From a virus (taxonomy: Duplodnaviria > Heunggongvirae > Uroviricota > Caudoviricetes), in IMG/VR virus record IMGVR_UViG_2721755660_000001: a stretch of 64,000 bases of DNA. One strand, 5' to 3'. Position numbers: made by a program. Of the stretch, positions 45,001-51,000 are shown piece after piece (position 1 is the first letter of the stretch; each line of letters opens with the position of its first letter).

Positions 45001-48000
45001 ATTATGATTACATAGAGCATGGTTTTGATTGCCAGGTAATCAACCACGGCAGGAATGCCAAGGTAGTAAGAAACCTTTTCTCGCACAGCGATGTGTATTA
45101 AGTAGACTCCGTATGTAAAAGGAGCAAGGAAAAGAATAATCTTCGAAGCAGGCTTGTCATTATCGAAATGAGTGCCGGTGACTATTAAAGTCAACATACT
45201 AGAGAAGAAGAACATGCTGACGCTAAAATCATAGGGCTTGGTATCAAACCCAAGGCTGTTGACGCTTAGCCATGTGAATGTGACTTGCATTGCAAGCGAG
45301 GCCGCAAACAACTTCCACGTGGTTGATCTCTTGATTTTAACGCGCTGAAGAAGCCCTCCCGCGATGAAGTAGCCTAGCCAAAGATAAATCTGAGGTATTG
45401 GGATAATGTTATGATACCCCGTTATTACTTTCCCCAGTTGATGCTCATACTGAGGCCAACAACAAATGACAGCTATAAATATTAAGCTATGGGCAGTTTT
45501 ATCCAATGGAATTGCATCAGTTATTACTTTAATGGCAGGGTAAACAATGTAAATGCCAAGCAGAGAATAAACAAACCATAAGTGAACAGATATGCCTGTT
45601 GGTGATTTGTATAGCAACTCGAAAAATCCACCTATTCCTTTATTGTAGAACGCATCATTATGCTGGAAATAATAGTTTATGAAAGCGTAAATGAAGAATG
45701 GAACAAGCAATGTTGCAAGTCTTTTTCTATAACCAGACCAAAGATTTTCCGTTTTACGGTTAAGCAGGAAATATCCGCTCATTATAAAGAATATAGGAAG
45801 TCCGGCTCTGACGATCGCTTGAGTAAACATCGATTGATAGACAATTAGATCAGACTGTCCGGTTTTAACCATCGTCGCATAGTCCGGGGTAACATGAATT
45901 GCTATCACTAACAGGCAGCAAATTATCCGTAAAAAATCTGCAGATACATTTCTCATGGGGATTCCATAAAATTTTTTCCTACATGATAGAGCAACCAACC
46001 CCGGTTGTGAATGGCATGAGAAATTCCATAAGCATCAGTCATAAGCATTGAGGCAGTGATCACTACTTGATCAGCAATGCCGCAATGAACTACTGTATGC
46101 ATATACAGTAATCACGGAGTGCATATCATGGGCTTTCCATCACCGGCGGCAGACTTCACAGAAAGGCGCATATCGCTCGATGCGATGCTCGTAAGCCATC
46201 CATCAGCTACGTACTACATGCGCGCAGCAGACACTCACTATCGCGCTGGTATCATGTCTGGTGCGCTTCTTCTCATCGACTCGGTATTGAAGCCATGCGA
46301 TGGTTCGCTTCTTGTTTGTGCTACTGAGGGGGAATTCAGGATAAAGCGGTACCGGACTCATCCGCGACCACACCTGGAGAATCTTGCTGATGGGAGATGG
46401 GAGGAGTTGCCGATAGACAGGGAGAACACGTCGGATGCGCTGGCGGTGTTTGGGGTGATCAAGTACATCATCAATGATGCGCGATCGGGGGAGTTTGACG
46501 ACTGCCCGGTGATGTAGCTGGAACTACTCCACCTTTTCATCAAGCCAGTCTGCCCACCACTGCATCATCTCACGACGGGTATCGAGATAGGCGGCATGGT
46601 TGTATACCGATCTGGTGCCGCCGCTAACGTGTGCCAGCTGCATTTCGATAGCATCACTGTTCCAGTGCTTCTCATTGAGCACGGTACTGAACTGATGTCG
46701 GAATCCGTGGCCGCTGGTCTGCCCTTCATAGCCAATGTTGCGGATCAGCCCAAGTACTGAGTTCTCGCTGATTGGCTTCTTTCTGTCATTTCGGCCGGGG
46801 AAACAAAGGTCGTACTGACCGGTGACATGCTTCAGAAACTTAAATAGCTCCTCAACCTGCCCGGACATCGGCACGACGTGCATCTTGCGGCCCTTCATCA
46901 CTGATGGATCAACGCTGATTAGCCTGTTTTCAAAGTCGATTCCTGACCATGCCAGCGAGCGGAGTTCGACTGTGCGCATGGCTGTATAGTGCAGCACCTG
47001 CGCCGCTATCTTAATAACAATCCAGCCGCCATAGGCATTCATTGCCCGCTGGAACTCGTGTATGCGGTGCAGGGGAAGGAAAGGGTAGTTCTCTTTCCGG
47101 TAGCCACGCATAGCGCCAGCAAGGTCTCTTGATGGGTTGTACTTAGCCCTGCCAGTTACGATCGCATAACTGAATACTTCACCACACCTACGCCTCGCCT
47201 TATCAGCGCGTTCCATTGCGCCCCTGTCTTCGAAAAGCCTGATCACCTTCAGCAGAACCATTGGTTCGACATCTTCCATCTTCAGGTGCCCAATAACTGG
47301 CAATATGTCATCCGTGAACATGCTCATCATCTCGTCAGCATATCCCTTAGACCACACCTTTGATTTGTGCGCATGCCATTCACGGAAGATATCCCCAAAA
47401 GAATCGGCGCTCTCTTCTTTCTCTTTCTTCTTTATTGCCTTCTTCTGTTCAGCCGGGTCAATGCCGGTCAGCAATTTCATCTTCGCTTCAGCCTGCCGGG
47501 CCCGGGCTTCGGTAAGAGAAATTTCAGGATAGGGTCCGATAACTAGAGTCTTTTCTTTTCTATCAAAACGGTAGCGCAGGCGCCATACCTTTTTACCCGA
47601 CGGAGGGACAAAGAGGAAAAGACCTCCAGCATTAGCCAGGCGATATGATTTTTCCGCAGGCTTGGCTGCGTCGATCTGCTTTACCGTAAGCATGTGGGCA
47701 TAAATCCATGGGTATTTTTTGATATGCCCGCAATATGCCCGCAAAAGTTTGGTGGAGTCAATACATGTCGGGTAACGTCAGGTAATTTGAAAATGGATGA
47801 TATTGTTGCTTTGATGGGGTTGTTGGTAACGTCAGGAAGTGTGAGGTAATGAGAATGTGGTGTCCCCTGCAGGAATCGAACCTGCAATTAGCCCTTAGGA
47901 GGGGCTCGTTATATCCATTTAACTAAGAGGACGTTGTTGCGTATTGATTTTGGTTGTTCACCATATGACTGATAATACCGTCTTTATGGTTTTAAAATCA

Positions 48001-51000
48001 AGGTGTAAGTTCGTTTTTGTTCATGGTTGATTATCTTCTTTTGCGTTGAAAAGTGTTTTGTTCACTTGCTAATGCGTACATATTGAGTACAGAATACATT
48101 ATAAACTTGTGTACAGGATATAAAGCATTGGCACTGAGTGACACCAAACTACGAGGCCTATACGGAAAACCCTACTCTGGCCCTGCTGAAATCACCGATG
48201 GTGACGGGTTAAGTGTGCGGATTACTCCAGCAGGAACTATCACGTTTCAGTACCGTTATCGCTGGAATGGTAAGCCAGTACGTCTTACTGTCGGGCGCTA
48301 TCCGTCCACTTCACTGAAGGACGCACGTGTTATCGTCGGTGAGATGCGCGCATTGTACATGAAGGGAGTTAACCCTAAAAATTATTTTGCCCCCAGTGAT
48401 GGCGAATTGACATTAAAAGAATGCCTGGATCAGTGGTGGGATAAGTATGTTAGCGGCCTGAAACCCAATACTCAGACGCTTTATAGATCTGTTGTGTACA
48501 ACACTATGTACACACAGTTTGAAGACTCGCCAGTTGCCGGTATCCCTGTATCGGCTTGGGCTCGCTTTTTTGACAAGCAAGAAAGCCTCAACAAGAAAAA
48601 GGCTCGTGTTCTGTTGTTACAACTGCGTTCAGTTATTAACTGGTGTATCAGCCGCCAGTTAATCCCATCATGCGAATTACTCAAACTTAGTGTAAAGAAT
48701 ATTGGGAAGAAACCAGATGTGGGGAGTCGCGTACTTACCTATACGGAACTGGCAAAGATCTGGCTGACACTGGAGAACTCAAAAGTGGTTACTTCCAACA
48801 AGCTGTTACATCAATTGCTATTGCTATGGGGGGCCAGGCTTTCTGAGCTACGTCTCGCTACAGCCAGTGAGTTCAACATGGAAGATCTGGTCTGGACAAC
48901 CCCTAAAGAGCATTCAAAGATGGGTAATATTATCCGGCGTCCGATATTTACTCAGGTTGAGCCTTATATTGAGCGATTGCTTAATATCGGATTTGATGTG
49001 CTGTTCCCTGGGCAGGAAATAGATAAACCTATTGACCGTTCGTCTGCTAATTTGTACATGAAAAAACTCAGGGCGAAAATTGATATTCCTGAATGGAGAA
49101 CGCATGATTTTAGGCGTTCTCTGGTAACGAATTTATCTGGGGAAGGAATTATGCCCCACGTCACTGAAAAAATGCTGGGGCATGAACTGGGAGGAGTGAT
49201 GGCCGTGTATAATAAACACGACTGGTTGTCGGAACAGAAAGATGCGTATGAGTTGTATGCTGATAAAATTTTCTGGCACGCTAAACAGCTCGGTTAATTC
49301 CTCCGGATTTAAGCCATTGTTCAACGGCCTGACGGCTATATCGCGCCGGATGAGTAAGTACTGGATCAGGGAATCCGTGTTTTTTTCGCAAATTATACAA
49401 AGCTGTGCGCCTTTTTTGTAACAACTCAGAAACTTCTTTTTCGGTCATTAAGTTGATTTCCATAGTATGCTCTCCTTTTCTACATGTTTTTCAACAGCAT
49501 AATAAACCGCCCGAAGGCGGTTGTTAGTTGATTGATGTACGGCGCATTTTTCGAAGGCTGGCAATATGCTTTTCCTTCTCAATTTCCGCTTTAATCATAT
49601 GCAGTTCGTTGTGCTCTATTCGCTCAAATTCTTCATTAAATGCACCAATTGAAGTGGCTCTGGTTCTGCCGTCGAGCCTTCGGTAGATCACCTGAGTCAG
49701 AGTTACCTTGCATATTTCTACCGGATAGTTGTTGGCATCAACGAAAGACTGCCCGCGCTGGATCAGGACGAACACTGGTTGTATTCCTTGAGTGCCATAT
49801 CATAAACACGGCATGCCGAGAGGTGTGTTGTAGTCAACGTCGTTCGTATCCTGAAAAGTCCATGTGTTGTGACGGTAACTTCCGGGGCTTTGAGTTTCAC
49901 TGCATCAACGATATGCTGATGTTTGCGGCTTTCGAATATAGAGCTGGAGATAACCACACTTGCTGTTAAACCGTAACTTTCAAATGTGATTTTCATGTCA
50001 TTATCCTCGCAGTTAGCCGGGCAACAAAAATAAATAATATTGTTCCTGCGAATAACAGGATACCGCCCGTCATTAGAGAAAGGAAAAACAATATTAATGT
50101 ACGCGGGTTGTTTCTCAAAATATTCTCTCTGTGATTCGCTCACTCTGACAATTCGTTGATCAAGTCACGGTATTTATTCAGTTCTTGCAGCGCCTTACAT
50201 GCACCCTCCCATCGTTTCTGTTTCCGCCCGGCGCGACGCGCTTCTTTCCGTGATTTACGTAGCAGGTCACCTATAATGTTGTGCTGCACTGGCTGCACTG
50301 GCTGCACTGGCTGCACTGGCTGCACTGGCTGCACTGGCTGCACTGGCTGCACTGAGGCGATATTTGGTTTTTTGTCCACTTCCCTTGCAACTGCCTGCCA
50401 GATGCCATTTTTTACAGTTACTACCCCCTGGTTTTTTAACTTCCATAGAGTGTCAATAACGTCATTCAAATCAATATTGAGACCTTTAGAAATACTTTCG
50501 GCTGATGCTTTTCCTAATTTGTTCAATTCTGTGAGCACTGCGTTCATTTTTTTCTCCTGATATTTTAATGTCGGTGGGGCTGTTATACGGTTGGTGAGGT
50601 GTCAGCTTCTTCTACCAGCTTTTCCAGTTCATCCAGCTTTCGGGAAAGAATTTCACCAAACAGATGAAGTTCTGCATCTGCTGTAATCGGGATTGGAACA
50701 AATCGTATTCCACTTCTGGCAAGTTGCAGGTTAGCCACGGTTAACCTCCTGCGGCGGTTCCGGTAGCGGCATCCAGTGTGTGGCCTGTTCAATACCATTA
50801 CCATCAATACCATTACCAGGCGCAACCGTTATCTGCCCACGCCGAAAGGTGCTTCCGGTATAGCGTGCGGAGCATATTAGCGGTTCAACCAGAGAGCTAT
50901 CGAAATTCACCGAAATAAGCACGTTCTGGCCCTTTTCAGGCATTCGCTCACTACAGCTTATCCAACTATCCGGAGTTACCGGATAGTTGCCCGATAGTGC

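Follow-up and report, generated by a model that had tools for sequence, protein, structure and literature searches.

A phi24B-type prophage at the 5' end of argW, with a second prophage on the 3' side of this tRNA gene

The Shiga toxin (Stx) phage phi24B (vB_EcoP_24B, HM208303.1; Fogg et al. 2007, 2011; Mohaisen et al. 2020) has an integrase gene that is inverted relative to that of lambda, has its own promoter and lies outside CI control, while excision needs a separately controlled Xis (Fogg et al., PMC3064807). A 24-bp central crossover site has been defined for this integrase, with a requirement of 62-93 bp for the bacterial attachment (att) site, attB, and of 350-427 bp for the phage site, attP (Mohaisen et al., PMC7581858), and the primary chromosomal site was placed about 250 bp upstream of intS (PMC5247750). 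Neither the word tRNA nor argW occurs in the phi24B papers (PMC7581858, PMC5247750, PMC3064807), which define the primary attB relative to intS; one of them places the site both upstream and downstream of that gene. A 24-bp att has also been stated for Stx phages at argW (bioRxiv 10.1101/2024.03.06.583675). We analysed a 64,000-nucleotide stretch (the window) of the Caudoviricetes record IMGVR_UViG_2721755660_000001, in which argW is flanked by an integrase gene on either side, belonging to prophage 1 on the 3' side of the tRNA gene and to prophage 2 on its 5' side. Prophage 2, which runs from 47933 beyond position 64000, is almost certainly the left end of a phi24B/933W-type lambdoid prophage, integrated by its own integrase at nucleotides 1-24 of argW. 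The second integrase is thus a real feature and one of a known kind, the int-xis-attL end of a phi24B-type argW-integrating prophage. Its integrase, excisionase, P' arm, 24-bp core, inverted int and TTG start are all the same as in phi24B, the module itself showing no differences, and the rest of prophage 2 is a mosaic relative.

The same integrase (95.5-100% nucleotide identity), junction and 24-bp att are found in the short-tailed Stx2a prophages at argW of Escherichia coli strains that produce Shiga toxin (STEC), namely those of O157:H7 clade 8 (TW14359/EC4115), PA2/PA8/PA28, O145:H28, O111, O26 and O121. In O157:H7 argW Stx2a lysogens a second integrase (intS, of an Sp16-like element) also lies on the tRNA 3' side, making the locus two-sided as it is here, but the 3' side of the window holds a complete 46-kb prophage where those STEC loci hold a small Sp16/CPS-53-type remnant. 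The classical elements at the argW 3' end (CPS-53/KplE1 with IntS, Kapi1 and Sf6-type) use the same host gene, have an integrase of the same P4-like arm-binding architecture and leave the tRNA restored intact; they share the 3' ~15 nt of the gene and lie downstream of it, like prophage 1, whereas prophage 2 shares the 5' 24 nt and lies upstream, so that it replaces the promoter region of argW where the classical elements replace the terminator region. Integration at the 5' end of a tRNA gene (tDNA) is uncommon but recognised. At arg2A of Klebsiella pneumoniae, 5'-end elements with repeats over the acceptor 5' half, D-stem and D-loop were described as a "novel D-loop sublocation" (bioRxiv 10.1101/2020.11.02.365908); as at argW here, although in a different species, the element is upstream of the tDNA and some strains have one element at each end. 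The configuration filter of Islander likewise admits a 5' fragment upstream of the tDNA.

ARAGORN found a single tRNA gene in the window, a minus-strand tRNA-Arg(CCT) identical to K-12 argW over all 75 nt. The first integrase gene lies on its 3' side on the minus strand, and the second lies upstream of its 5' end on the plus strand, to the right of the minus-strand tRNA and directed away from it. The two integrases, Int1 and Int2, share only 25-30% identity, in patches. The tRNA prediction, the open reading frames and the Pfam domains together bear out the two-integrase layout proposed by a first-pass annotation of this DNA, including the position of the second integrase on the argW 5' side and its transcription away from the tRNA. 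The gap of 186 bp given there between this integrase and the tRNA 5' end needs correction to 195 bp, since the annotated int start, both in the identical phi24B gene and in RefSeq, is the TTG at 48128. This rare TTG start was reported for phi24B int, and was located together with the int promoter, pInt, by 5' rapid amplification of cDNA ends (PMC3064807); an earlier start dismissed in that paper is probably the GTG at 48053 that opens the longest reading frame.

The target of prophage 2 was identified by comparison of the four att sites. Homology to prophage-free K-12 is confined to exactly the 75-nt tRNA and breaks at 47932/47933, just upstream of tRNA nt 1. In strain 2013C-3250, whose nearly identical argW prophage spans argW to yfdC, the junction on the yfdC side consists of phage sequence, then TTATATCCATTTAACTAAGAGGAC, then AATGCGGCATGAGTATACC, the latter being the native argW upstream region. 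TTATATCCATTTAACTAAGAGGAC is the reverse complement of argW nt 1-24. An attP predicted from the right end of the 2013C-3250 prophage, the core and window positions 47933-48082 was found contiguous and with 100% coverage in 12 phage records, including vB_EcoS_P27, Stx2 phage 86, Lyz12581Vzw and phi345/346/349, and the phi24B record itself, beginning 16 nt ahead of the core, thereafter shows no difference from the window. Empty attB sites were available in strains O22:H8 154, GB089 and OkiPb01715, which carry prophage 1 at argW without prophage 2, and in K-12 as a further empty control. The same 24 bp are therefore common to attL (window), attP (phage records), attR (2013C-3250) and attB (empty sites), and as read from these sequences the four sites form the textbook Campbell pattern around a 24-bp core. 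By analogy with 2013C-3250, attR of the present genome would be expected to read TACTTGTATTCA-TTATATCCATTTAACTAAGAGGAC-AATGCGGCATGAGTATACC, followed by yfdC.

These comparisons reverse the earlier assignment of prophage 2 to a target other than argW: the target is argW itself, bases 1-24, and the 24-bp repeat at the far (yfdC) end of the 2013C-3250 prophage bounds the element at this gene. Two other parts of the same claim held up, namely that prophage 2 is not at the argW 3' site and that its second att copy lies beyond the window, in which the core occurs only once even with up to 3 mismatches allowed. In the alignment to prophage-free E. coli that was suggested there as a check, K-12 homology stops at tRNA nt 1. 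Placed on the ARAGORN cloverleaf, the core takes in the 5' strands of the acceptor and the D-stem, nt 8-9 between them, all 8 nt of the D-loop and, of the four nucleotides in the D-stem 3' strand, three. It is thus no 3' part of the tRNA, as the core of a 3'-end-integrating element would be, and the element lies upstream; a core over the acceptor 5' strand, D-stem and D-loop, an upstream element and a displaced 5' stub, which in 2013C-3250 adjoins the native promoter and yfdC, are instead the features of the 5'-end or D-loop sublocation. Measured from the intS start of K-12, argW nt 1-24 are 213-236 bp upstream, which is where PMC5247750 puts the primary phi24B site (about 250 bp). The base beside the core (window position 47933, argW position -1) varies among the phages: read in the tRNA sense, the window shares a C with phi24B and Lyz12581Vzw, and P27, phage 86 and PA2 have a T; this T matches the chromosome and extends the att identity to 25 bp in the latter three.

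Int2 is identical to the phi24B integrase ADN68388.1 (HM208303.1) in 389 of 389 amino acids and matches the Pfam families Phage_integrase (PF00589) and Arm-DNA-bind_3 (PF13356). The convergent gene, which overlaps int tail to tail by 17 bp, had been described as AlpA-like; its convergent arrangement stands, but the 60-residue helix-turn-helix protein that it encodes is the phi24B excisionase, identical to Xis ADN68389.1 in 60 of 60 positions. Its sole Pfam match at E<=0.01 was HTH_17 (28.4 bits against a cutoff of 27), with no match to the Phage_AlpA profile (PF05930) at that threshold. Integration by Int alone, and excision with Xis, have been reported for identical proteins (PMC3064807, PMC7581858), and it is from this literature that we take the activities expected of the two proteins here. 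The P' arm between argW and int, within which the phi24B literature places pInt, has only 2 variable positions among five phages or lysogens. The features of the locus are listed in Table 1.

Table 1. Features of the argW locus and of the two flanking prophages (window positions)
Feature	Position	Strand	Basis or remark
Distal att of prophage 1, displaced 15-bp copy of the argW 3' end, TGGTGTCCCCTGCAG	1690..1704		exact second copy of the 15-mer
Prophage 1, ~46 kb, at the argW 3' end	1705..47857		bounded by the 15-bp repeat
Prophage 1 integrase (Int1)	46524..47693	-	389 aa from RefSeq start; longest open reading frame reaches 47744 (406 aa)
Prophage 1 att core, last 15 nt of argW (part of T-stem, acceptor 3' strand, ACCA)	47858..47872		
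argW, tRNA-Arg(CCU), intact	47858..47932	-	ARAGORN; K-12 identity
Prophage 2 att core, 24 bp, TTATATCCATTTAACTAAGAGGAC, argW nt 1-24; attL copy	47909..47932		att comparison
Left 16 kb of prophage 2, 933W/phi24B-like (Sepvirinae-type) lambdoid, runs off the window	47933..64000		
P' arm of attP, phage-derived upstream region of argW; pInt here per phi24B literature	47933..48127		identical to bases 41-235 of the phi24B record
Candidate sigma-70 promoter into argW, TTGATT-18-TATTAT	47972..48001	-	consensus scan, prediction only
int of prophage 2 (Int2), phi24B-type tyrosine integrase of the P4-like arm-binding kind	48128..49297	+	identity to ADN68388.1
xis of prophage 2, recombination directionality factor	49281..49463	-	identity to ADN68389.1
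Four blocks matching the 2013C-3250 prophage	47858-50991, 52606-52957, 53291-58303, 59085-64000		

Beyond int and xis, the part of prophage 2 in the window contains early-left genes, exo/RecT/Gam, a type II restriction-modification pair, cI/cro and helicase genes, in the order int-xis-early left-exo/bet/gam-cI-cro of a normal phi24B-like prophage. With this content, a phage-inducible chromosomal island or P4-like satellite (an int-alpA island of ~10-15 kb that lacks its own phage replication, lysis and structural modules) was considered and rejected. Between positions 47858 and 64000, a total of about 13.4 out of 16.1 kb match the argW prophage of 2013C-3250 at 99.1-99.97% identity, in the four blocks of Table 1, and the rest is 85-91% identical or unmatched; the 2013C-3250 counterpart continues with full late genes up to yfdC. 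The restriction-modification pair (59523-61942) adjoins a cI-like repressor gene (62037..62750), and its labels, from the RefSeq annotation of a 99.9%-identical prophage, are BsuBI/PstI-family endonuclease (59523..60476, minus strand) and Eco57I-type methylase (60473..61942, minus strand). The 2013C-3250 prophage is itself split by a complete Mu-like prophage of ~39 kb in a DUF1367 (nin-region) gene (NZ_CP027380.1 1306122-1345793). No stx is annotated between the Q/tRNA cluster and nanS-p in the 2013C-3250 prophage; the equivalent stretch of prophage 2 lies beyond the window.

The distribution of the module was surveyed in 5,426 complete RefSeq E. coli genomes. The int-xis block was present in 208 of them, at 94-100% identity in all but one, and the junction of argW with the P' arm was likewise present in 208, the matching counts indicating that the module is essentially always at the argW 5' site. 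Its hosts were STEC (O157:H7, O111:H8, O26, O121:H19 and others), and in many of these genomes the block from the tRNA through xis was contiguous. In a record that by its name, WG5::PA2, is a WG5 lysogen of PA2, the argW 5' end is taken by int, and dsdC immediately adjoins the 3' end. O157:H7 SS52 has the order intS(-), argW(-), phi24B-type int(+), xis(-), so that both sides are occupied as they are in the window, and double occupancy of argW is also evident from tables and primer designs in published work on O157:H7 (PMC8190617; TW14359 in PMC8309913).

Prophage 1, placed at the argW 3' end by the first-pass annotation, is confirmed there by a 15-bp direct repeat. The sequence TGGTGTCCCCTGCAG (plus strand) is present twice in the window, against a chance expectation of 0.08, and a 25-mer of the tRNA 3' end had no second copy in the window. 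Window positions 1..1704 align to the empty argW 3' side of 2013C-3250, in an alignment that ends exactly at the 15-mer, and on these two grounds, the repeat and the alignment stop, the limits of prophage 1 were set. The element lies downstream of the tRNA with a displaced 3' fragment, as expected of 3'-end tRNA integration, and its integrase matches Phage_integrase, Phage_int_M and Arm-DNA-bind_3. The three strains that carry it without prophage 2 are 100% identical to the window over positions 1-12000. Both ends of argW are thus used at once, the 3' 15 bp by prophage 1 and the 5' 24 bp by prophage 2. The earlier description of two prophages around one tRNA is accurate in that both flank a single tRNA gene, but "tandem array" is loose wording, because the elements are not head to tail at one att site and occupy two att sites at opposite tRNA ends.

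Some further observations concern prophage 1 and its surroundings. Where K-12 and WG5 have dsdC, the chromosome next to the argW 3' side carries here the csc sucrose-utilisation island, with cscB at 1..1248 and its downstream region up to 1704; the annotation of 2013C-3250 includes a short remnant of a DUF4942 pseudogene close to the tRNA. The int-proximal end of the prophage (43000-47857) includes an acyltransferase gene and, at 46119..46517, a gene resembling HumD/S24 peptidases; an IS3 element adjoins this end in strain O22:H8 154. The right end (40800-47857), the int-proximal part included, had no megablast match in a phage collection of 50,697 records.

The arrangement almost certainly arose as follows. 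Prophage 2 was inserted through site-specific recombination of the Campbell type, for which it supplied the tyrosine integrase, with the crossover within the 24 bp common to phage attP and the first 24 nt of argW. A core formed by the 5' end of the gene puts the prophage upstream of argW, towards yfdC. The tRNA is intact and keeps its own 3' 51 nt, now joined to the P' arm and int as the attL seen in the window, with the coding sequence exactly restored, while the 24-nt argW 5' stub and the native promoter would have been moved ~60 kb away beside yfdC as attR, beyond the window. If the symmetric sublocations at the anticodon loop and T-loop are a guide, strand exchange probably takes place around the D-loop, with the halves of the D-stem serving as inverted core-type sites. 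As int has its own promoter it is not under CI/pL control, and xis, on the pL-side strand, provides directionality on induction. Prophage 1 has entered independently, at the classical 3'-terminal 15-bp site.

An integration of this kind would also exchange the promoter of argW, the gene for the only AGG-specific tRNA. In K-12 the native promoter appears to be TTACCC-17-TATACT, has a GC-rich discriminator and stops 11 nt short of tRNA nt 1. In the window, transcription of argW would now start from a promoter of phage origin within the P' arm, the candidate sigma-70 site of Table 1 (48001..47972 in the direction of transcription), with a leader of ~33 nt to tRNA nt 1. If so, the intact argW would depend on a phage promoter and the native promoter would drive only the 24-nt stub. 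It is conceivable, though on balance doubtful, that phi24B-type Stx lysogeny in this way swaps the argW promoter and alters a rare-codon tRNA in its level or its growth-rate control, a form of lysogenic conversion. No test of an effect of promoter exchange on argW expression was found in the literature searched. In the attR of 2013C-3250 the stub promoter is directed into the right end of the prophage, antisense to an 8.4-kb gene with LPD38/LPD5 domains, and a GC-rich hairpin, CATGCCCCGTACGGAAGTGCGGGGCATG, lies between the native promoter and stub and this gene.

Several points weigh against the account given above. As this genome's own attR copy lies past the end of the window, both the far end of prophage 2 and its integrity in the source strain are extrapolated from near-identical prophages. 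The candidate argW promoter in the P' arm rests on a consensus match, with 3 sites found where 1.6 were expected in shuffles, and the near invariance of the arm (2 variable sites) means that its conservation carries no information on this promoter. None of the complete genomes searched has both prophages contiguous, none covering at least 80% of 47000-50500. This last result, together with the finding that the two halves match different strains at 100% (prophage 1 in GB089, OkiPb01715 and O22:H8 154; prophage 2 in E2855 and 2013C-3250), would also be expected if the juxtaposition of the two prophages were an artefact of assembly or of the window, arising through the shared 75-bp tRNA. The same architecture is nevertheless present in O157:H7, in SS52, in the outbreak strains of PMC8190617 and, according to PMC8309913, in TW14359, and since the two att sites are separate (47858-47872 and 47909-47932) double occupancy is expected to be possible; we regard an artefact as highly improbable.

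That the second integrase is the stranded remnant of a decayed element, with unrelated DNA or a truncated prophage to its right, could be argued from the far end being outside the window, from the mosaicism of argW prophages (positions 50991-53290 differ from the 2013C-3250 prophage) and from the interruption of the 2013C-3250 prophage by a Mu-like one. The first-pass annotation had itself raised origin as a remnant of a different element as a reading that would overturn its own. We consider it very unlikely, as neither int nor xis is shortened, both match their functional phi24B counterparts at 100% identity, and they are contiguous with the ~13.4 kb at least 99% identical to a prophage bounded by both att copies, in a normal phi24B-like gene order. 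The least probable of the alternatives, to which we give almost no credence, is that prophage 2 was inserted in a non-tRNA target, the yfdC-argW spacer or the argW promoter, and merely abuts the tRNA. The element does lie wholly upstream of the mature tRNA sequence, which is unaltered, and the phi24B papers (PMC7581858, PMC5247750, PMC3064807) give the site as "upstream of intS" only; the duplicated core, however, is tRNA nt 1-24 and not spacer, attP has the same 24 nt, and the chromosomal junction at attR begins exactly at tRNA nt 1.

Integration of prophage 2 at the first 24 nt of argW, the reading that we retain, joins two literatures, in that the site "upstream of intS" of the phi24B papers is the "argW" of STEC genomics. 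The argW 5' site is an E. coli example of the rarely described 5' or D-arm sublocation. A single tRNA gene here provides two att sites that do not overlap, of 15 bp at its 3' end and 24 bp at its 5' end, and can therefore be flanked by two prophages unrelated to each other, a point that matters when prophage boundaries are annotated in STEC genomes.

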